DNA from: an uncultured virus (IMG/VR IMGVR_UViG_3300044946_000014)
Taxonomy: Duplodnaviria; Heunggongvirae; Uroviricota; Caudoviricetes
Strand: one strand, 5' to 3'
DNA length: 20,000 bases
IMG/VR virus record: IMGVR_UViG_3300044946_000014
Part shown: in pieces, positions 5,694 to 18,835 of the stretch
How positions within the stretch are numbered: the first letter of the stretch is position 1
How the letters are laid out: each line of letters opens with the position of its first letter
The notes under the pieces: model-generated
Told to the model about the DNA's origin: nothing
The model's database searches: none
What the model saw: the letters and a program-made list of their open reading frames with translations, nothing else
Translations under genes and position numbers: made by a program

Positions 5694-5981
5694 TTAAGCC
5701 ACCGTTCGGGATTGTTTGACCTTGCGGCTGGACGTGCCCGCCGACTCTTGCACATCATCGCTGGCGACGATGTTCTCTATGCCGTTACCCCATATATCGG
5801 GGCGCAACTCTGCCAGCGTAAAACGCGAATCCTGTCTGACAATTTCTTTGCAGAGTTCTGTGCCGGGACGCCGGGCGCCACGAGCGCAGTGGTACAGATA
5901 GTCATGATTGACCTCCAAAGACTGAGCGAACGCCTCACGATCTGGGCGTTTCGTCTGCTTGAAGTAAGTCTTGAGGTCCAT
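5694..5981 (-). CDS. cro: Cro/YdaS-like repressor
   Basis: MDLKTYF...REAFAQSL...GARRP...TLAELRPDIW; divergent from cI. Confidence 0.8.
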   Translation of the reverse strand: MDLKTYFKQTKRPDREAFAQSLEVNHDYLYHCARGARRPGTELCKEIVRQDSRFTLAELRPDIWGNGIENIVASDDVQESAGTSSRKVKQSRTVA

Positions 5982-6015
5982 GCCGCCATCCAAAGGTCTG
6001 CGTATGGGATCAGTA

Positions 6016-6032
6016 TAGACCAAAAAGGACTA
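6016..6032. promoter_or_regulatory. Right operator TAGACCAAAAAGGACTA overlapping the cro promoter (-10 TATACT on the minus strand, 6012-6017)
   Basis: 15/17 identical to the palindromic operator at 6871-6887. Confidence 0.75.
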
Positions 6033-6053: not shown

Positions 6054-6089
6054 TTTATCAAATTGATCTGCGTTGGTAGGGTTGAGTCA
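6054..6089 (+). promoter_or_regulatory. Putative PRM-like promoter giving leaderless cI mRNA
   Basis: TTTATC-17 bp-TAGGGT with extended -10 TG; the cI ATG follows after 6 nt; no clear SD. Confidence 0.5.
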
Positions 6090-6586
6090 TGAAAACGTGC
6101 CGACAAATACGCTACGAAAACGCGCGAACACTCATCGTCAAGGATGGCCCTGCGAACTTCGCCAGGAAGATTTCGAGCGCTACCGAAGACGTTATGACGC
6201 CCCAGCAAGTCAATTCTTGGGGCGGCCCCAATCCGCGACGAGGGATTGGCGATGACATTGCGAGGCGCATCGAGCGAGCATATGAGAAGGAAGAAGGATG
6301 GCTTGACCATGAGTGGATCGGCGCTGGCGAAACGCAGAACAAAGGCCAAAATCGGGCTCTGAGTAACGAAGCAAAAAGTTTGATTGTGTGTGTCGAGCGT
6401 CTGGATGTCCTTGGCGACTTGGCTAGGAAAACATTCACCTACCATACGGGTTTGCTCTTACTTTCTTTGGCTTCTGCTGAGTTGCAGACTGGCGCAGTGC
6501 GGTCCCAAATGTTGGAAGAGATAGAGCGTCTGCTGGGTCCGACACAAACGGATTCCACGGGGGCATCAAATGAACGAAAGAGCTAA
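6089..6586 (+). CDS. cI: CI-like phage repressor (N-terminal HTH, no S24 peptidase domain)
   Basis: IRYENARTL...FARKI...RGIGDDIARRIERAY...GWLD; divergent from cro. Confidence 0.8.
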   Translation: MKTCRQIRYENARTLIVKDGPANFARKISSATEDVMTPQQVNSWGGPNPRRGIGDDIARRIERAYEKEEGWLDHEWIGAGETQNKGQNRALSNEAKSLIVCVERLDVLGDLARKTFTYHTGLLLLSLASAELQTGAVRSQMLEEIERLLGPTQTDSTGASNERKS

Positions 6587-6743: not shown

Positions 6744-6763
6744 GCATCTCCAGTTAAATATAG

Positions 6764-6786
6764 AGCCCGCTTCGCGCGGGCTTTTT
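6764..6786 (+). terminator. Rho-independent terminator of the cI operon
   Basis: AGCCCGC-ttcgc-GCGGGCT followed by a T run. Confidence 0.85.
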
Positions 6787-6863
6787 CACGTGCTCAAGAT
6801 GCATGACTATCGGCATGAAGTGTTCGATTAAAAACAATTATGCTGATGATGGGGCAAAAAGGT

Positions 6864-6891
6864 TTGCAAATAGACCAATAAGGTCTAAGAT
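6864..6891 (+). promoter_or_regulatory. PL-like promoter with a left operator in the spacer
   Basis: TTGCAA-16 bp-TAAGAT; perfect palindrome TAGACC-aataa-GGTCTA at 6871-6887. Confidence 0.75.
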
Positions 6892-7186: not shown

Positions 7187-7214
7187 CAACCGCTCCCGCT
7201 ACAGGAGAAAGACC

Positions 7215-7316
7215 ATGCGCATTGATCTCGATCTCTATCGCGAACTGCGAGCCGAGGGATGGGCCGCCCAAGCAGCGATCTTTTATGCGCGTCGCGCCGG
7301 CCGTTGGCTTGCCTGA
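7215..7316 (+). CDS. 33-aa peptide
   Basis: AGGAG SD; MRIDLDLYRELRAEGWAAQAAIFYARRAGRWLA. Confidence 0.6.
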   Translation: MRIDLDLYRELRAEGWAAQAAIFYARRAGRWLA

Positions 7317-7343
7317 CCAACCGCGCCTGCTAGGAGAAAGACC

Positions 7344-7550
7344 ATGGCACACCAAACGATGAGTGGGCGCTCTGCGCAGGCTCAAATCGACCTCGCGACT
7401 GAACGCTATTCCCATCTGCTGATGGAGGACGAGTGGACGCTCGAATATGCACATCAAGTCCTAGCGCATATCGACGCGCACCACATCGATCTATTTGAGG
7501 TGGCCGGACTTGCGAAAGCGATCGCGTGCTTTCAATGCGCCGCTGACTGA
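7344..7550 (+). CDS. Hypothetical protein
   Basis: AGGAG SD; 68 aa. Confidence 0.7.
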   Translation: MAHQTMSGRSAQAQIDLATERYSHLLMEDEWTLEYAHQVLAHIDAHHIDLFEVAGLAKAIACFQCAAD

Positions 7551-8768
7551 CCAACCGCGCCCGCTACGGCGGGAAAAAGATCGAAACGCCTAGAGGAAGC
7601 GGCAACACACGGCTAGGTGTCTACGCGTGATGCGCGTACTGACGAGATCGTAATAGCGCCAACGGGCGCGCCGTTCTGGTGACAGCGGGCGGGTTCTTTA
7701 AAAATCGACGGTTTTGATCCGGGACGCGCAAGCGAGCAACCGGGCGTTGTGCTCATGGTGCACACGAGATAGCGCTAGGACAGGCAACCATTTCCCGAAA
7801 GGGACACCGAACAAAGCAACCGCTGGTGTAGAAAGCGGAGCGCCCGCGATAGTCGCGTGACCAGGTGAGTCATGATGGCGTCACGGAAGGCGTGCGGCCC
7901 GGGAATACAGACCGGCGCCGCACGTAAAGCAGTTCTTCTGAGAAGGCCGCTGAACTCCCTACGCGGCCGAGTAATCGCGAAACCGATCCACCTTAATGCC
8001 CAGCCCCTCGTGGCGGGTTGGTGCAGTAGATTAGCCGAAGGCCGCTGTATAGCAACAGCGCCTTCTCAGAAGGATTGCGGTAGAGCAGCGTGTGCATCCA
8101 CACCGCGAAAGCGGGTTGCATGAACGGGAGAAGGTGGATAGGCCCGTTTCTCCAGGCTGGCACGGAGACTTTGTCGGAACGGCGTACCGCAAGAAGCCAG
8201 TTAGCTCCGCCCGATTGACCGCCGTAAGCGGTCGCCCGGTAAGCGCATTCGTTGAGTGTGCTTACCGGGACTGGATGACTTTGCGGAGGTTCAAGACGGT
8301 CCCCATAAATGTCCACGAATCTCCAAAGTTGGCGACTCAATAGCCTGGCAGCCCGGAAAGACGGCCCTCAGCAGTGCTGAGGCGAGACGATTGCCGCGGA
8401 AGCGGTGCAGGCACTGTCCGGGAGCCAGCCTTAAGAACAATCGTCTCGACCTGAGCATTGCAAGCAGCTTGAGTGGATGGTGCTATGCGGCTCCTAGCGA
8501 GCTGGTGACGTGCGCTGGCAGACATGGAAACGGCGATGCTTAGGCATTTAGGTCCGCCCATAGCCGATCGGAAACACAGGCCGATCCATAGCGTCATCCA
8601 CTGAAGCTGTTTCAAGGCACCCCACCCAAGCAACCCGCAGACATTGACGATTGGGCCTCGTCAACCATACCCCATGCTTAGGGATGAGACTCCAAAACCG
8701 CTGCCTGATGCGGAATCTGCCGGTTGCTTGGCTGGACTGCTTTTTCTGTCACTAATTTAGGACTCCAT
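7551..8768 (+). ncRNA. Putative structured non-coding RNA array (~1.2 kb)
   Basis: Successive long stems with G-U pairs: 7929-7952/8056-8078, 8235-8250/8254-8269, 8383-8393/8438-8448, 8458-8487/8587-8615, 8626-8641/8716-8731; GNRA/UNCG tetraloops; no convincing SD-led ORF. Confidence 0.6.
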
Positions 8769-8876
8769 ATGCTTTGGGGAATTGTTGTGACACTCATCGC
8801 TGCGTTTGCTCTGTTCTTGTGGGCACTTCGCAGCGGCTTCAAGATCATCGAGAGAGATGATCATCATCGGCATTAA
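8769..8876 (+). CDS. 35-aa single-TM peptide
   Basis: AGGA SD; MLWGIVVTLIAAFALFLWALRSGFKIIERDDHHRH. Confidence 0.6.
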   Translation: MLWGIVVTLIAAFALFLWALRSGFKIIERDDHHRH

Positions 8877-8888
8877 CTAGGAGCAATC

Positions 8889-9251
8889 ATGCAGATTCAG
8901 CTTCCCCCGCTCACTGACGGCGAGATTTATCTCTGCGGCTTCGTCGACAAGAATGGCGACGTCACTCACACGATCCTGCTGCCGGGTGACAACGATCCTG
9001 CGACATGGCAGGAACAGATGAACTGGGCCAAGAGCATCGGTGGTGATTTGCCGACGCGCGCCGAGCTCGTGATCGCCTACGAACAGCATCGCGACCTGTT
9101 CGAGAAGGCTGCGTACTGGTCCAACACGCCGGACGACGCCCCCGACTATGCCGGCTGGGCTTGGTGTCAGGGCTTCGGCCACGGTAGCCAGAACTGTGAC
9201 GGCCGCTACTTTCAGTTCCGTGCCCGGGCCGTTCGCAGATTGTCGATTTAA
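8889..9251 (+). CDS. DUF1566 (Lcl/CLec-fold) protein, DGR target gene 1
   Basis: WAKSIGGDLPTRAEL...YWS...WAW.Q.F..G.Q...FRARAVRR. Confidence 0.9.
   Translation: MQIQLPPLTDGEIYLCGFVDKNGDVTHTILLPGDNDPATWQEQMNWAKSIGGDLPTRAELVIAYEQHRDLFEKAAYWSNTPDDAPDYAGWAWCQGFGHGSQNCDGRYFQFRARAVRRLSI
9151..9238 (+). repeat. DGR variable repeat VR1
   Basis: 88-nt ungapped match to 9636-9723; 16 mismatches, all at codon positions 1-2. Confidence 0.85.
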
Positions 9252-9280
9252 CCCTTCATCCATTTTCAACGGAGAAAGCA

Positions 9281-9745
9281 ATGACGATGACGCTTGAAGC
9301 AATCGAAGCCGAGCACGTGCGCATCGGCGCGATGATCGAAGAATTCAAGAAGCAGCCGAGAGCAACCGAGTACCATGTCGACGCCGTCACCATCCCGCTC
9401 GCGGCAGGTGAGCGCATCGCCGGCCAGATTCTTCTCGAAGACGGATCGTTGAGCCACTACCTGATTCTCCTGCCGGGGGAGGCCGAAGATCTGGATTGGG
9501 AGGCGGCGAAGGCATGGGCCGCCGAACGTGGCGGCGAACTGCCGACGCGACGGGAGCAATCGCTTCTGTTCGCCAATCTGAAGCCTGAGTTCGAGCCGAC
9601 TTGGTACTGGTCCGGCGAACGTCACGAATCGAACTCCGGCTGGGCTTGGTTTCAGTACTTCACCAGCGGTACCCAGTACTCTACCGGCCACGACAATCAG
9701 TTCCGTGCCCGGGCCGTTCGCAGGTTCATTCCTTCAATTTTTTAG
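9281..9745 (+). CDS. DUF1566 (Lcl/CLec-fold) protein, DGR target gene 2
   Basis: WAAERGGELPTRREQSLLFAN...WYWS...WAWFQYFTSGTQ...FRARAVRR. Confidence 0.9.
   Translation: MTMTLEAIEAEHVRIGAMIEEFKKQPRATEYHVDAVTIPLAAGERIAGQILLEDGSLSHYLILLPGEAEDLDWEAAKAWAAERGGELPTRREQSLLFANLKPEFEPTWYWSGERHESNSGWAWFQYFTSGTQYSTGHDNQFRARAVRRFIPSIF
9636..9723 (+). repeat. DGR variable repeat VR2
   Basis: See VR1; shared invariant GC-rich 3' end CAGTTCCGTGCCCGGGCCGTTCGCAG (IMH-like). Confidence 0.85.
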
Positions 9746-9757
9746 TCATTCATCCCC

Positions 9758-9967
9758 ATGGCGCTTCATACCGAGCTCGACATATATCGAGATGCGTGTG
9801 ACTTGTTTGCCGCGATCGCGAATGCCGTCGCGAACATGCGAAAGGACTTCAAGCCATTGATCGGTCAGGAGCTTTTGAGAGAAAGCACGCGAATCACGAT
9901 CTACATCTTCCGCGCGAATGCGGCCACCGACAAGGCGCCGCATCTGATGAAGAGCGCACATCCATGA
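9758..9967 (+). pseudogene. avd: Truncated DGR accessory variability determinant (four-helix-bundle protein)
   Basis: MALHTELDIYRDACDL...NMRKDFKPLIGQEL...IFRANAATDKAPHL is the Avd N-terminal half; only 69 aa, too short for the four-helix bundle. Confidence 0.8.
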
Positions 9968-10563
9968 ATCCAAACGGCAACATCAAACACGGTCATCACG
10001 GATCGCGAACGTACCAGCGTTGGAAGTCCATGCGCCAGCGCACCAATCCGGGCCGGAGCGCGCATCACGCGAAGTATTACGACGGAGTGACATGCTGTGA
10101 ACGGTGGGCAGATTTCGAAGCATTCCTCGCTGATATGGGCGAATGTCCCGCCGAGCATACACTTGATCGTTTCCCGAATGCGAATGGTAATTATGAACCG
10201 GGAAACTGCCGCTGGGCGACGATGGCCGAGCAGAACGCCAATCGCTCTAACTGCCACATGATCACACGCGATGGCGTGACGAAAACAGCAACGGAATGGG
10301 CGAAAGCACTTGGATTGCGACCAGTCACAGTCATCGCCCGTTTGCAGCGCGGCTGGGATCATGAGCGTGTACTGTCTGAGGCACCGGGAACGACTGGTGG
10401 CTGCTCATATCCAGAGATTGATCTGACATTTCGCGGACAGACCAAACCTCTCGTTGCATGGGCGCGCGAGATTGGAATGACGCCCAATGCATTTCGAATG
10501 AGATTGCGGCTCGGCTGGTCAGTCGAGCGCGCACTCACGCAACCACTTAAGGCGCGCGGCTAA
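9964..10563 (+). CDS. HNH-type homing endonuclease-like protein with a duplicated C-terminal HTH
   Basis: HG..SRTYQRWKSMRQR...CERW.DFEAFLADMG...TLDR..NGNYEPGNCRWAT..EQ..NR; two G.TK...WA..G......RL..GW..ER.L units. Confidence 0.85.
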   Translation: MNPNGNIKHGHHGSRTYQRWKSMRQRTNPGRSAHHAKYYDGVTCCERWADFEAFLADMGECPAEHTLDRFPNANGNYEPGNCRWATMAEQNANRSNCHMITRDGVTKTATEWAKALGLRPVTVIARLQRGWDHERVLSEAPGTTGGCSYPEIDLTFRGQTKPLVAWAREIGMTPNAFRMRLRLGWSVERALTQPLKARG

Positions 10564-11410: not shown

Positions 11411-11620
11411 ATGGACTGGAACCGAGGCGATCTCGAATTGAACGACGGGATGCTTTACTCGAACGGTCGATTTCTCGGCACGTTCTCTTGCTGGGCCGCC
11501 GGCAAGGAAGCAATCGGGATCATGAAAGAAGGGCGGCAGGTTTGCACTGCTCGCGATACACACACGATGTCAGAGGAAGACATCGATCTGATGCTGGCCA
11601 TTAATTATGACGAGAGGTGA
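11411..11620 (+). CDS. Hypothetical protein
   Basis: GAGGTG SD; 69 aa. Confidence 0.7.
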   Translation: MDWNRGDLELNDGMLYSNGRFLGTFSCWAAGKEAIGIMKEGRQVCTARDTHTMSEEDIDLMLAINYDER

Positions 11621-11623
11621 ATC

Positions 11624-11905
11624 ATGGCACTCACTCCCGAAAAGCGCAAAGCTTTGAAACTGGCACGCAGAATAATAGAAGATAATAAATCTTATTTTAT
11701 TTGCATTGCTCTTGATAATGTGGAATCAGATTATCCTGGTCTGACGCAGGCATGCTTTAGCCTCAGAAGTTACATAGCAAAAAAACTCGGATCACATCAT
11801 ACGCTTGATTCGTGGTCAAAGTCGAAGGCTAGACGCGGGTCGATTACGGTAAAACAGGGGCGCGCATTACGTTTGGCATGGATCGACTGGATGCTCGGAG
11901 ACTAA
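11624..11905 (+). CDS. Hypothetical protein, AT-richer than its neighbours
   Basis: GAGGTG SD; 93 aa. Confidence 0.7.
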   Translation: MALTPEKRKALKLARRIIEDNKSYFICIALDNVESDYPGLTQACFSLRSYIAKKLGSHHTLDSWSKSKARRGSITVKQGRALRLAWIDWMLGD

Positions 11906-12088
11906 CGTGCGCCCCACCAAAGCCCTACATCGCGCGGCGACTGCGAGTCTGGACGGCCATTTGCGTTTCTTAGTAACGATTCGCGGCGTCACGCAAGTAA
12001 TGACGCTTCCCGAACTCGCCTGCTGCAACGAAGCCCGCGTGCAATGTGCTTTGTTCTGCGGGCATGTTGTTAATCCGAGGGGGTGAGA

Positions 12089-12844
12089 ATGAGCAAAGAC
12101 AAGAGTATTGAAGTTATGACGGGTGAGCATCGCAATCGGATTATTCGCCTACATAACGCACTGGAAGGCGCAGAAAATATTGGCGAAGCAATGGCGGGAC
12201 GCTATGCCGAATCACTGCGTGTCCTGCTCGATGCATGTTCAGTCGAGCAGCACGAAGCAGCGCCGACTGGATACTGCGAGCGTGCTGGCGGTTGCGTGTG
12301 CGGCGGCGACTTGCCGCGAGTCCGCGAAGGTTGTTCAGAGTGGGTGTCGACTAAACCGCAGCACGAAGCCGCGCGGTCTGAGAAGCGATATAACGGCAGG
12401 ACAGCGGCAGATTTGCGAGAAATATGTTCAACGCGTCCTGCGCGCTACCCTGCCGCTCATCATGACTTTGACAAAACCATCCTTGCGTTGCTGGATGACA
12501 TCGAGCAACCCACACCATCCGCCCCGCTCGAAGGCACGGGCAATGGGGCGGAGACGTGCAAGACGTGCGGCGGTTCGCGCGTGGTGAACGACGGCGAAAT
12601 CACGGGCTCTGGCGGCGTCGAATTCGAGAATGGCCCGATCAGATGCGTCAAGGACTGTCCGGATTGCACATACCGCGCCCCTCGCACTGAGGTGGCGGGA
12701 GCGGTGCCGAGCACCGATCAAATTCACGCGATTGGTGCGCTTGTGTCGCTTGGCGAAGCAATGGGACACGAAATTATCACCAAGCACGCACGCGATTTTT
12801 TGGCTGCTTGCGCGAGAGATAAAAATGGACATCAGCAAACTTAG
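12089..12844 (+). CDS. Mosaic accessory protein with Cys-rich modules and shared linkers
   Basis: GAGGGGG SD; contains the VEQHEAAP, APLEGTGNGA and RAPRTEVAGAV linkers also found in 17687-18835. Confidence 0.75.
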   Translation: MSKDKSIEVMTGEHRNRIIRLHNALEGAENIGEAMAGRYAESLRVLLDACSVEQHEAAPTGYCERAGGCVCGGDLPRVREGCSEWVSTKPQHEAARSEKRYNGRTAADLREICSTRPARYPAAHHDFDKTILALLDDIEQPTPSAPLEGTGNGAETCKTCGGSRVVNDGEITGSGGVEFENGPIRCVKDCPDCTYRAPRTEVAGAVPSTDQIHAIGALVSLGEAMGHEIITKHARDFLAACARDKNGHQQT

Positions 12845-13147: not shown

Positions 13148-13288
13148 GGCTTTGTAGGGATGGGAATGCGCGGGCTGACGCGCGTAAGTCAGGAGAACGC
13201 TTCGTTCGCTTCCTGCCCCGTCTTAAAGGTGACGGTCGAGCGAGTACGAAATGCCGGAGATCAGCACCGGCCCCATCCCCACAAAGCC
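13148..13288 (+). ncRNA. Putative multibranch structured RNA with a kissing loop
   Basis: 17-bp closing stem (1 mismatch) enclosing four hairpins; loop GCTGA is complementary to loop TCAGC. Confidence 0.6.
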
Positions 13289-13313
13289 GTGAGGACTACT
13301 ACTGGAGAACGCC

Positions 13314-13604
13314 ATGGCAACAATGAGCAAACTGAAACCTGGCGATGTGCTCTATGACGTGCATCGAACGAAGATGGGCAATACGACGGCGAGCACGATG
13401 GGATGTTGGATCGTGCGCGTTATCGAAGTGCACGGGACATACATCATCGCCTCATGGAATGGTAATCCACCGCGTCGCATGTTTGAGCACAGCATCAAGA
13501 AGCTTCGCGTCAACAAGCCAGTATTCGTCAAATCCGGTTTCGGTAAGCGTCTCGCAACTTGCGACGAAATAAAGGCCATGAAAGCCGAAAAGGAAGGGCC
13601 ATGA
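13314..13604 (+). CDS. Hypothetical basic protein
   Basis: GGAG SD; 96 aa. Confidence 0.75.
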   Translation: MATMSKLKPGDVLYDVHRTKMGNTTASTMGCWIVRVIEVHGTYIIASWNGNPPRRMFEHSIKKLRVNKPVFVKSGFGKRLATCDEIKAMKAEKEGP

Positions 13605-16445: not shown

Positions 16446-17678
16446 ATGACGATGACCCTCCGATTTGGATCGGTTTGCAGCGGTATTGAGGCGGCGAGCT
16501 GCGCCTGGCATCCGCTCGGCTTGCGCGCTGCATTCGTGAGCGAGATAGAACCGTTCCCGTCCGCTGTGCTGGCGCATCACTACCCGACCGTGCCGAACCT
16601 CGGCGACATGACCAAATTCAAGGAATGGCCCCATGCAGCTATTGATCTTCTCGTCGGCGGAACTCCCTGCCAAAGCTTTAGCGTCGCCGGACTTCGAAAG
16701 GGACTGGCTGACCCGCGTGGCAACCTCATGCTCACCTATCTTGCCATTGCTGAGCGCTACGCTCCCCGCTGGCTGGTCTGGGAAAACGTCCCCGGTGTGC
16801 TGTCGTCCAACGGCGGACGGGATTTTGGTGCCTTCCTCGGGACGCTGGCGCAGCTCGGGTATGGGTTCGCATACCGGGTTCTTGACGCTCAGTTCTTCGG
16901 AGTGGCCCAGCGACGCCGTCGTGTGTTCGTTGTCGGACATCTTGGAGACTGGCGACGTGCCGCAGCGGTACTTTTTGAGCGCGAAAGCCTGCTCGGGAAT
17001 CCTGCGCCGAGCCGCGAAACGGGGAAAGGAATTGCCCCCACCCTTAGCGCGCGCACTAAAGGCGGTGGCGGACTCGGAACCGACTTCGACTGTGACGGCG
17101 GCTTGATTGCTGGAGCCCTCTGCGCTGACTCGCACCCCGGTTCGTACAGTGGACAAGACGCCTATACCGGGCGCCTTGTCGCGCACGCACTCTGCGGCGA
17201 AGGATTCGACGCAAGCGAAGATGGCACGGGACGAGGCACGCCGCTCGTCCCTGTGCCTTTCGATACGACGCAAATCACGTCGCGTACCAATCGCAGTAAC
17301 CCACGCGCTGGCGATCCATGCCATCCGATTGCGGCTGGCGCTCATCCCCCGGCAATCGCTTTCGATTGCAAGGCATCCGGTCAAAACGGATTCGGTGTCG
17401 GTGAGATTGCCTCCACGATGAGAAGTATGGGCCATCACGGATCGCATCAGAACGGCGGCGGCCATCAGGCCGTCATGCATAGCACTGGAGTGCGCCGCCT
17501 CACTCCTCGCGAATGCGAACGGCTGCAAGGCTTCCCCGACGACTACACCCGCATCACCGTGCGCGGCAAACCCGCTGCCGATGGCCCGCGCTACAAGGCG
17601 CTCGGCAACAGCATGGCCGTGCCCGTCATGCGCTGGATTGGCGAGCGAATTGAGCTCGTCGAATCACTGACCATCTGA
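16446..17678 (+). CDS. DNA (cytosine-5)-methyltransferase
   Basis: SVCSGIEAAS (I), GGTPCQSFS (IV), WENVPG (VI), QRRRRVFVVG (VIII), RRLTPRECERLQGFPD (IX), YKALGNSMAVPV (X). Confidence 0.95.
   Translation: MTMTLRFGSVCSGIEAASCAWHPLGLRAAFVSEIEPFPSAVLAHHYPTVPNLGDMTKFKEWPHAAIDLLVGGTPCQSFSVAGLRKGLADPRGNLMLTYLAIAERYAPRWLVWENVPGVLSSNGGRDFGAFLGTLAQLGYGFAYRVLDAQFFGVAQRRRRVFVVGHLGDWRRAAAVLFERESLLGNPAPSRETGKGIAPTLSARTKGGGGLGTDFDCDGGLIAGALCADSHPGSYSGQDAYTGRLVAHALCGEGFDASEDGTGRGTPLVPVPFDTTQITSRTNRSNPRAGDPCHPIAAGAHPPAIAFDCKASGQNGFGVGEIASTMRSMGHHGSHQNGGGHQAVMHSTGVRRLTPRECERLQGFPDDYTRITVRGKPAADGPRYKALGNSMAVPVMRWIGERIELVESLTI
16633..17106 (+). CDS. Nested +1-frame ORF resembling the M.EcoHK31I-type methyltransferase beta polypeptide
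   Basis: AAGGA SD 8 nt upstream; SLSDILETGDVPQRYFLSAKACSGILRRAAKRGKELP motif. Confidence 0.65.
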   Translation: MQLLIFSSAELPAKALASPDFERDWLTRVATSCSPILPLLSATLPAGWSGKTSPVCCRPTADGILVPSSGRWRSSGMGSHTGFLTLSSSEWPSDAVVCSLSDILETGDVPQRYFLSAKACSGILRRAAKRGKELPPPLARALKAVADSEPTSTVTAA

Positions 17679-17686
17679 GGACCACC

Positions 17687-18835
17687 ATGACCGAACAACA
17701 ACACAGCCGCGCAGCCGTCCGCGTATGCGCAATCGCCGACGCCGAATGCTCGCGCAACTGCGGCACCGGGCCGTGCAAGCGCGAAACGTCAACTGTCGAG
17801 CAGCACGAAGCAGCGCCGGCCGACGACAAACTCGAACGACCAGCGCGTGTCGGCGGCCGGAATTATGTCGCTGGGGAGCTTAAACAGCAGGTCGTAGGTC
17901 GTGCATATGCCGAATATGACCGCTGGAAATCGCGCGCCCCGCTCGAAGGCACGGGCAATGGGGCGGATGAACGGGCGACCGAAGACGTTCCCACCGGTGC
18001 CATCGTCAATGGCAGAACGCTTGCCGATCGTCTGGAAGCGTATCCATTCGAAAGCGAAGGTGGTGATTTACGTCTTTGCTCCGATTGGGTGGAATTTCGT
18101 CGATGCTTCGAGCATTTGGCCGAATGGGCTCAGTTCCGCGCCCCTCGCACTGAGGTGGCGGGAGCGGTGGAGATCCAGGCCGGATGTGTACTGATCTCGG
18201 AAGCTGATCTCGAATCGTTTGTTCATCCGCAATACGGCCCGGGCGTGTTCTGTACCGAGGACTGTGTGAACAAGCTCGCACCCGCTCCCTCCGCAGATGC
18301 AGCGGCAGCGCCGGCAGACGAGCGGGCGATGTGCAATTGCGGCGTGTACTGCCAGGATCAGGGGCATGGAGATTGCCGCTATGATGCCCGCGCGGCAGCA
18401 TCGCAGCCCGCAGCGGCAGCGGGGCAAGAGGTGGCGCAATATCAGTATCGTCTCGTCACTCCGGACTATGAGGGCGAGTGGCACAACTGCAGTGCAGAAA
18501 AGATTAGAACGCTTCAAGAACAACCGACTCAAAAAAGCTTTGAAATACGTGAACTTTATACCGATGTGCCTGCGAAGCCTGAAGTAGAACCGCAGGCGCA
18601 AGCGGCCGGTATGTTCGTGAAACGCTCAATGTTCGGACCTTGGATCGAAGTTGACAAACCGGAACCCGGAGCCGTGCGGCTCTACACCGTCCCGCCCGCG
18701 CAGGTCGCCACTCGGAGGGATCTGACGGACGAGCAAGCTGCATCGATCTCATGGGCGATCCGCGCCGCGAAGGAGTGCGGTTATACGGCGGACGCCGAGG
18801 TGCTCCGCGCCCTTCTCGAAGGAGCCAAGCCGTGA
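17687..18835 (+). CDS. Mosaic accessory protein made of short modules joined by Ala/Pro-rich linkers
   Basis: GAGGA SD; shares three exact DNA linkers with 12089-12844. Confidence 0.8.
   Translation: MTEQQHSRAAVRVCAIADAECSRNCGTGPCKRETSTVEQHEAAPADDKLERPARVGGRNYVAGELKQQVVGRAYAEYDRWKSRAPLEGTGNGADERATEDVPTGAIVNGRTLADRLEAYPFESEGGDLRLCSDWVEFRRCFEHLAEWAQFRAPRTEVAGAVEIQAGCVLISEADLESFVHPQYGPGVFCTEDCVNKLAPAPSADAAAAPADERAMCNCGVYCQDQGHGDCRYDARAAASQPAAAAGQEVAQYQYRLVTPDYEGEWHNCSAEKIRTLQEQPTQKSFEIRELYTDVPAKPEVEPQAQAAGMFVKRSMFGPWIEVDKPEPGAVRLYTVPPAQVATRRDLTDEQAASISWAIRAAKECGYTADAEVLRALLEGAKP

Follow-up and report, generated by a model that had tools for sequence, protein, structure and literature searches.

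What does a stretch of some 1.2 kilobases (kb) without genes do in the first lytic operon of a temperate phage? The question is raised by positions 7551-8768 of a 20,000-nucleotide (nt) DNA, called the window here, from an uncultured virus of the Caudoviricetes (IMG/VR record IMGVR_UViG_3300044946_000014). The window holds the immunity and early-left region of a lambdoid, temperate phage whose closest relatives are Burkholderia and Caballeronia prophages and whose hosts are soil bacteria, probably of Burkholderiaceae type. A first-pass annotation made from the sequence alone had taken this stretch, referred to below as the array, for several RNAs that fold separately and form a polycistronic cassette in the operon of the leftward promoter PL, and this description is supported by what follows. 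The array is read, with a probability put slightly above even, as a polycistronic operon of phage small RNAs whose transcript would be cut by a ribozyme, shielded from Rho by a boxA-Nus complex and trimmed by RNase III. Loci used for comparison bear L numbers, coordinates are collected in Table 1, and published sources are cited from extracts.

No open reading frame (ORF) of at least 28 amino acids (aa) led by a Shine-Dalgarno (SD) sequence starts on the + strand within 7551-8768, and the five longest ORFs overlapping it gave no Pfam match. Substitutions among homologues fall almost equally in the three frames of module 2 (78/81/83), module 4 (116/113/92) and module 8 (76/75/97); in a neighbouring gene the counts are 162/142/461, the third position taking 461 of the 765 changes. 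Frameshifting indels occur in 29 of 41 homologue rows, 77 of the 90 indels not being multiples of three. The array is non-coding because its substitutions are flat over the frames and most homologues are frameshifted, which bears out the earlier reading of a gene-free stretch; conserved ORFs with codon-type substitutions, the finding that would have spoken against it, were looked for and no codon periodicity appeared. Small proteins missed by ORF calling could be sought in the ORFs of 83-115 aa that overlap the array on both strands, but these lack SD sequences as well, and an explanation by hidden proteins is largely refuted and very improbable.

The 11 helices proposed in the first-pass annotation all form, among them 7929-7952/8056-8078 (23 pairs, 2 G-U), 8458-8487/8587-8615 (27 pairs, 3 G-U), 8383-8393/8438-8448 (11/11 paired) and the 16-base-pair (bp) hairpin 8235-8269. 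Two of them need qualification: the hairpin 8366-8382 forms but a longer stem, 8371-8393/8438-8461, competes with it, and helix 8277-8292/8317-8330 forms but covaries in its inner part only, as one helix of a pseudoknot. Folding was stronger than in dinucleotide shuffles for 7551-8200 (z -3.3, 20 shuffles) and 8200-8770 (z -6.8, 100 shuffles), but short tiles gave modest values, those of 150 nt ranging from z +0.4 to -2.4 without singling out the region. Tiles of 400 nt over the array scored -1.4, -2.7 and -5.1, and 3 of 46 other tiles, all coding, reached -3.3 to -5.2 (8 shuffles each). Since coding tiles of this length score as low, folding energy alone is not decisive and is a weaker argument than had been implied. 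Coding tiles with low z (-3.3 to -6.2, few shuffles) lie at 11551-11950, 12351-12750, 13151-13550 and 17151-17300.

What decides for RNA structure is the comparative evidence. Compensatory changes were found in seven of eight multi-sequence module alignments and in the ribozyme, and consensus folding prefers the + strand in all five module alignments tested, in support of the earlier proposal that selection acts on RNA of this strand. Helix 8626-8641/8716-8731 folds as well on the - strand (-27.1 vs -25.2). An Rfam scan of the window gave no match at gathering, the sub-threshold Hammerhead_II match being the only credible one and the others looking like chance; scans of 40 loci recovered only tRNA, tmRNA (transfer and transfer-messenger RNA) and RT-15, and 14 loci scanned by E-value yielded no further credible match.

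The first interpretation is supported in part; the hammerhead ribozyme, the boxA, the mosaic exchange of modules and the pseudoknot module had gone unnoticed in it. At the array head, 7579-7649 has, by its sequence, the structure of a type II hammerhead ribozyme that would, by analogy, cleave itself. Judged by the type II criteria of PMC3088659, its core is exact: C3 U4 G5 A6 N7 G8 A9 (7639-7645), G12 A13 A14 A15 (the GAAA of 7583-7586) and U16 H17 (7620-7621). All three stems pair perfectly, without a mispair beside the core; stem II (7579-7582/7646-7649) is open, stem I (7622-7627/7633-7638) and stem III are looped, stem III closes at 7620 and the cut is predicted after C7621. A permissive Rfam scan placed Hammerhead_II (RF02276) at 7579-7656 with 19.8 bits, which misses the gathering threshold of 37; the long stem III loop lies outside the RF02276 model, and the hammerheads of relatives also fall below gathering. 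In 14 aligned hammerheads 99.1% of the cells are paired and both partners change in 12 of the 16 pairs, values reached by 0 of 500 shuffles in a test that ignores relatedness; pairing in slid registers does not exceed 49%. The search pattern included part of the core but none of the stems. A pseudoknot between loop I and the 3' tail, a feature of the majority of type II hammerheads, can be drawn by eye with 6 pairs in L049.

An IMG/VR scan for a hammerhead core followed by a boxA-like motif gave 30 loci, of which 12 are type II, 3 type I and 15 chance. One of seven metagenome matches, L077, was discarded as a chance match inside a gene. Two type II hammerheads are present in L072, and L033, L044 and L056 are AT-rich phages with clustered type I and III hammerheads, one of which is followed by a boxA-like motif.

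By its sequence, 7693-7703 is a boxA of the type found in rrn operons (consensus in PMC5725501), and by analogy it would bind Nus factors. A boxA lies within 1.2 kb upstream at 7/7 module-2 loci and 6/7 module-8 loci (0 and 1 on the opposite strand); the loci were fetched by module patterns, and 3 and 1 of them, respectively, had already been picked by the boxA pattern. The two small hairpins that precede boxA stand where rrn leaders have boxB; over 14 sequences both partners change in 5 of their 8 consensus pairs. Of five genomic matches to the boxA motif, three (L149, L151, L152), from two Burkholderiaceae genomes, look like rRNA leader or spacer by their flanks, the 16S start lying outside those contigs.

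The element in front of boxA differs among loci. At 33 boxA sites a hammerhead lies within 60 nt in 16 cases, an over-count for arrays with this head because two of the scans required a hammerhead core; a promoter of at least 9/12 consensus matches lies within 70 nt in 3, with three more recognised by eye directly after the repressor's terminator, and another conserved hairpin stands just after a stop codon in 6. Hammerhead and strong promoter were found together at 0/33 sites. Their alternation suggests that the block needs a 5' end of its own, obtained by initiation or by cutting. The other hairpin, conserved and irregular, follows a stop codon and sits in the hammerhead slot before boxA in L064 (1076-1135), L065, L104, L134, L136 and L159; it shows one compensatory change by eye in these six arrays and is a candidate RNase III site or self-cleaving RNA.

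Behind boxA lie about nine modules, several of them closed by carrier stems of 22-27 bp. The shared design seen earlier, a long closing stem around smaller hairpins, is supported, with stems of a size suited to RNase III, exceeding the 11-bp duplex minimum of the enzyme (PMC1540722). No module reaches an Rfam threshold. Compensatory pairs number 2/19 in module 1 (3 sequences), 13/28 in module 2 (9), 19/36 in module 4 (8), 8/21 in the hairpins of 8205-8270 (14), 6/28 in module 7 (4) and 11/38 in module 8 (8), counts that ignore relatedness and lean favourable because the folds were derived from the same alignments. An unpaired UCCC is kept in 8/8 rows of module 4, for which a pattern search gave 1 locus; a related cargo family in L025, L039, L046, L049, L059 and L063 has, by eye, pseudo-symmetric C-rich internal loops in both arms. 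Module 3 had no nhmmer homologue at the cut-off used, and 4 of the 9 matches to its pattern lack boxA, three of these lying in AT-rich contigs and probably due to chance. The cargo of module 7 is also found in Ralstonia phage UAM5. The small hairpin at 8345-8365, whose loop is GGAAAGAC or GGAGAGAC, is met again in 25 other records, near module 6 in many phages, without matching an Rfam family at gathering.

Table 1. Coordinates of features in the immunity region and the array, with the evidence for each
Feature	Position	Strand	Evidence
cro-like gene	5694-6023	-	PHROGs profile match; faces repressor gene
Operator-like palindrome (right operator, OR), cro/repressor junction	6016-6032	not assigned	1 mismatch to palindrome at 6871
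CI-like repressor gene	6089-6586	+	phrog_12107, E 1e-12
Hairpin and U-tract, putative terminator of repressor transcript	6763-6786	+	Sequence; scan gave stem on - strand only
Putative PL promoter, 8/12 consensus matches	6863-6891	+	By eye; perfect operator palindrome 6871-6887 fills spacer
Repeated intergenic element, copy 1, ends in SD and ATG of 33-aa ORF	7187-7218	+	Repeat comparison
Repeated intergenic element, copy 2	7318-7346	+	Repeat comparison
Repeated intergenic element, copy 3, ends in UACG hairpin 7560-7573, no SD	7552-7576	+	Repeat comparison
Type II hammerhead ribozyme (assigned from sequence)	7579-7649	+	Rfam sub-threshold, descriptor match, covariation
Two small hairpins just before boxA	7656-7688	+	14 sequences, covariation
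boxA (NusB-NusE binding site motif)	7693-7703	+	GTTCTTTAAAA, exact match to GYTCTTTAANA
Module 1, two small stem-loops with internal loops	7719-7767	+	Homologues L057, L002, L058, L154, L159
Module 2, three hairpins; A-rich linkers and loop conserved	7788-7890	+	Covariation
Module 3, stem with conserved 9-nt loop	7891-7924	+	BLAST homologues, 11 loci from 5 contigs
Module 4, 23-bp carrier stem around 103-nt cargo	7929-8078	+	Covariation
Module 5, small hairpins, weakest part	8085-8204	+	0 homologues of 8085-8180 at fetched loci
Hairpin 8217-8233 and 16-bp hairpin 8235-8269	8217-8269	+	14 sequences
Module 6, compact three-helix pseudoknot	8267-8324	+	Pattern search, covariation
Recurrent small hairpin, GGAAAGAC-type loop	8345-8365	+	Present in 26 fetched records
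Module 7, 22-bp carrier stem around 44-nt cargo	8371-8461	+	Covariation
Module 8, 25-27-bp carrier stem around 99-nt multi-hairpin cargo	8458-8615	+	Covariation
Module 9, 24-bp interrupted carrier stem around 74-nt cargo	8614-8743	+	One full homologue, L049, 91%
SD and first ORF downstream of array (35 aa, hydrophobic), array end	8759-8876	+	ORF/SD reading

All modules but one have homologues in other phages, in differing combinations, and no single record holds the whole array. The matches come piece by piece, each from a different phage: 7745-7938 in L058, 7927-8086 in L050 (95%), 8177-8319 in L039 and L059, 8346-8443 in phage UAM5, 8463-8619 in L025 and 8614-8761 in L049. The ends of the matches lie close to the ends of stems. 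Carrier and cargo are not coupled, since L141 has the cargo of module 8 inside the first-module carrier of L040 and L046, and L058 has other cargo inside a carrier of module-8 type; carriers and cargo are exchanged independently. Exchange is also in line with relatives' contigs in which 8480-8591 and 8078-8353 are skipped, on short sides only, and one relative's contig spans 8021-8213 with 12 differences. It is likely that modules were swapped between phages by recombination at shared stem bases. In L046 (2538-2625, - strand) a carrier stem of the array encloses a tRNA-like RNA with an abnormal anticodon arm.

In the 13 arrays compared, of 351-1076 nt each, 32 helices of at least 18 bp occur in 9468 nt; the adjoining coding DNA has 11 in 9240 nt. 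This three-fold excess, and the persistence of carriers around cargo that varies freely among phages, would also be expected if the long stems served in bulk, titrating RNase III or RNA-sensing defence proteins with boxA titrating Nus factors and the cargo being secondary. Such a use is distinctly unlikely, because the cores of the cargo are retained between distant phages, their junction bases invariant, and module 6 persists with no carrier at all. A sponge for CsrA/RsmA was rejected, as GGA is not enriched in the 13 arrays (177 vs 180 expected, a count that leaves loop placement aside). Likenesses to SRP (signal recognition particle) RNA, SAM-II and pistol, twister or hairpin ribozymes, compared by eye only, were dropped.

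Arrays are patchy among the genomes searched, as 8 of 397 genomes of the Burkholderiaceae family match part of the array and 1 of 401 has the strict hammerhead-boxA pattern. The array of L058 has no match in the annotated phage collection. L026, a prophage of B. aenigmatica LMG 13014, has an array of this kind. Judging by eye from translations, the arrays of L054 and L074 are interrupted after boxA by a transposase- or TnpB-like ORF and that of L057 by an HNH-like ORF. Insertions of this kind (in L057 and L054), together with the highly variable content, would fit a neutral sink in which structured selfish or relic elements pile up behind a boxA that tolerates untranslated RNA. This explanation is improbable: the compensatory changes in modules and ribozyme speak against it, as do the fixed orientation and position of the modules, for which there is no mobility gene or terminal repeat.

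The best support for cargo existing as a free-standing RNA comes from module 6. Its three helices cross each other: P1 8267-8271/8299-8303, P2 8272-8277/8310-8315 and P3 8285-8292/8317-8324. A pattern covering 8272-8313 matched 50 viral loci, and 46 distinct sequences were compared, including other loci and the window. At the P1 position whose 5' partner is outside the pattern, A-U is found 29 times, U-A 16 times and a mismatch once; P3 is variable in sequence, yet paired in 35-43 of 46 at six positions. Over 30 of the 46 sequences 98% of the cells are paired, and both partners vary in each of the 4 P3 pairs; the paired-cell count is reached by 0/500 shuffles, and the count of both-side changes is not above shuffles (124/500). 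The support for P2 comes from one G-C/G-U alternation, because this helix is nearly invariant and part of the pattern.

The setting of module 6 varies. It starts 6 nt after a strong promoter in 4/46 sequences, is flanked in L116 by a promoter and a terminator, with no ORF, has a tRNA or tmRNA within 2 kb at 10/50 loci, follows a cluster of five tRNAs in Xanthomonas phage RiverRider and abuts a tRNA 3' end in L122. A long hairpin overlaps its first bases in 25/49 (by a crude rule), as in the window, where the 16-bp hairpin 8235-8269 takes up the three leading G of the pseudoknot. In the tentative wider proposal given below, module 6 would represent a new class of functional RNA that is the ligand of a protein or of a small molecule; a new self-cleaving ribozyme is a less likely option, with little probability attached to it. 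Assignment as an HDV-like (hepatitis delta virus-like) theta ribozyme was rejected, as the linker J4/2 lacks the invariant cytosine required by PMC10879173 (before the A-run, the successive positions are U in 43/46, variable, and C in 25/46) and the third helix pairs with the 3' tail, without a nested P3-L3.

The same settings bear on a cis-acting platform, in which hammerhead, boxA and stems would punctuate, stabilise and antiterminate the PL message for distal early genes and no module would act in trans. The lambda N leader and HK022 put are precedents. BoxA and hammerheads have known cis roles, module 6 is often at the +1 of a promoter, where put-like elements sit, and PHROGs and Pfam scans recognised no N-like antiterminator gene among the small ORFs; clustered prophage hammerheads have been proposed to cut transcripts into mRNAs (PMC3088659), which also counts for a cis role. 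Yet some 150 nt would do for a single boxA and a single cut, whereas the exchangeable cargo takes up 350-1100 nt, part of the cargo is tRNA-like, and module 6 is found between promoter and terminator without an ORF and inside tRNA clusters. A platform acting in cis is unlikely on this balance, and the small-RNA operon stays the favoured account.

In such an operon, induction or infection would fire PL, whose operator and position are seen in the window. The hammerhead would cut after C7621, separating the RNA block from the three small ORFs upstream of it and leaving a 5'-hydroxyl end that, from known hammerhead chemistry, should resist 5'-end-dependent decay. BoxA would then load the host Nus complex, so that 1.1 kb of ribosome-free RNA could be read without Rho termination, as in rrn operons and in CRISPR arrays. 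An enzyme that is probably RNase III would cut the carrier stems and release the cargo RNAs, and cutting of the 16-bp hairpin would likewise free the 5' end of the module 6 pseudoknot. The released RNAs would presumably act in trans early in infection. Most might be protein-binding decoys or ligands directed at host regulators or defence proteins, because the conserved parts are folded cores and junction bases and not an exposed seed; alternatively, the unpaired UCCC of module 4 might pair with SD sequences.

Several results weigh against this account, besides the leniency of the module counts and the over-count of hammerhead heads. The loop I-tail pseudoknot has, by eye, one G-A mismatch in the window. 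Modules 1-3, 5 and 6 lack a long enclosing carrier; no homologue of 8085-8180 in module 5 was found among the fetched loci, and module 9 (2 sequences) shows no compensatory change. Motifs at stem bases are mildly enriched at most (WGCAGY 30 vs 14.5 in shuffled and 16 in coding sequence; GAGTG 21 vs 12.9 and 3) or not at all (RYTGCR, 25 vs 27.6 shuffled), and UCCC shows no enrichment over the arrays as a whole (35 vs 31). BoxA is absent upstream at 40/48 module-6 loci, and a terminator lies within 150 nt in only 8/46 module-6 sequences. Among public sequencing data 12 runs matched, with one near-identical DNA run that may be the source of the window and RNA runs with shares of 0.05-0.13; the four runs compared consist of assembled contigs of relatives, in which ORFs are covered too, and demonstrate no transcript, cut site or strand.

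The array is best read, by analogy, as working like the dicBF operon of prophage Qin combined with an rrn operon. The likeness to dicBF and its small RNA DicF (bioRxiv 10.1101/2023.04.14.536235) is the location in a repressor-controlled, PL-equivalent operon; dicBF is described there with one small RNA, whereas here about nine unrelated modules follow a ribozyme and boxA head and are exchanged between phages. Homology to DicF was not detected by Rfam in the window at E up to 10. Prophage type II hammerheads, among which that of Burkholderia phage Bcep176 was tested, have the same architecture, core and prophage context and were proposed to process long phage transcripts (PMC3088659); those described flank protein genes and are often clustered, whereas here a single one heads a non-coding array with boxA. 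The rrn leader boxA and boxA-led CRISPR arrays (PMC5725501; bioRxiv 10.64898/2026.07.09.737519) share the exact boxA before a long untranslated RNA, and long stems that bracket the payload; here the arrangement is phage-borne, mid-operon and has mixed payloads, with no rRNA, repeat-spacer units or cas genes.

Other structured RNAs of prophages are less close. The non-coding RNA arrays of UG27 reverse transcriptases (RT) are likewise prophage arrays of structured units of about 150 nt that are gained and lost (bioRxiv 10.64898/2026.09.22.753630). According to that source all their units have one common fold and serve as cDNA templates for a neighbouring RT, which has two partner proteins, whereas the modules here differ in fold; an array of UG27 type was rejected also because no RT was found among the ORFs near the array or among those scanned upstream of the 13 arrays, and no partner gene is constant. 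The HDV-like theta ribozymes that lie by phage tRNAs (PMC10879173) resemble module 6 as compact pseudoknots with P1 from the 5' end and P2 closing the 3' end, but module 6 departs from them in the linker and in its crossing third helix. GOLLD and ROOL (PMC5737381) are also structured RNAs that occur in prophages and near tRNAs, described as single large conserved folds, unlike this mosaic of small modules without Rfam match. Nothing matching the array stands in the extracts of PMC5737381, PMC11109978 and bioRxiv 10.64898/2026.06.01.729453. A full-text literature search, judged from result lists and the opening lines of abstracts, found no description of such arrays; single modules may be contained in the motif supplements of PMC5737381 and PMC11109978, and a search with sequence strings returned primers only. 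Parts and logic have precedents, and the assembly and the module families are without precedent in the literature searched.

A wider proposal, tentative and less probable than the operon itself, is that lambdoid Burkholderiaceae phages have an RNA-only accessory cassette system, in which a standard head and carriers receive plug-in folded RNAs from a recombining effector library. The head would consist of promoter, ribozyme or processing hairpin, then boxA, the irregular slot hairpin being the second candidate cutter. Such a system would be the RNA counterpart of the variable islands of anti-defence genes, directed at host defence or regulation. Early regions of phages are interpreted as rows of small proteins directed at the host, and gaps of 0.4-1.1 kb stay blank in annotation. 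If the reading of the array is right, a group of temperate phages of plant-, soil- and clinic-associated Burkholderiaceae carries swappable, uncatalogued structured RNAs under the logic of rRNA operons. Prophage hammerheads, whose purpose is left open in the extracts of PMC3088659, would gain a concrete role, and several new RNA families with ready alignments would offer a place to look for RNA-based host takeover or counter-defence.

The regulatory region upstream of the array has an operator palindrome, TAGACC-N5-GGTCTA, in the two copies of Table 1 (0.20 matches expected, for a pattern derived from the first copy). A promoter scan at a threshold of 9/12 found no site, the putative PL being below it. 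After PL come, in order, three small ORFs, the array, the 35-aa ORF, a pair of Lcl/DUF1566 genes, avd in truncated form and an HNH gene. At 8 of 13 array loci a gene of repressor type is encoded shortly upstream on the same strand, and at one an antirepressor, with 45 of 70 upstream ORFs scanned. The repeated intergenic element is also present in L011, L017, L018, L049, L050 and BcepC6B. It usually ends in an SD sequence and start codon, separates small early genes and is common to BcepC6B and several prophages; it may be a recombination point for cassettes of small genes.

The array had further been noted to lie just upstream of the targets of a diversity-generating retroelement (DGR). The position is correct, and the adjacency is incidental: among 27 loci with Lcl/DUF1566 genes (25 viral, 2 genomic), modules like those of the window lie directly upstream in L025 only, and other genes follow most arrays. 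The DGR of the window is broken, its avd being truncated at 69 aa and followed by the HNH gene, with no template repeat or RT after avd in the window; L001 has a full avd and RT. The array as a DGR template or RT-associated RNA was rejected, since it lies upstream of the target genes, there is no RT, and RT-15 is found only in L049, downstream. That motif (L049 264-454, - strand; Rfam, 161.7 bits) follows DUF1566-like genes and is likely a DGR template region. In the window, the two Lcl/DUF1566 genes (8889-10563) carry 91-nt end repeats that resemble variable regions and are 81% alike. Three exact repeats of 24-34 nt in two ORFs 5.4 kb apart (12242-12706 and 17795-18169) correspond to shuffled protein segments.

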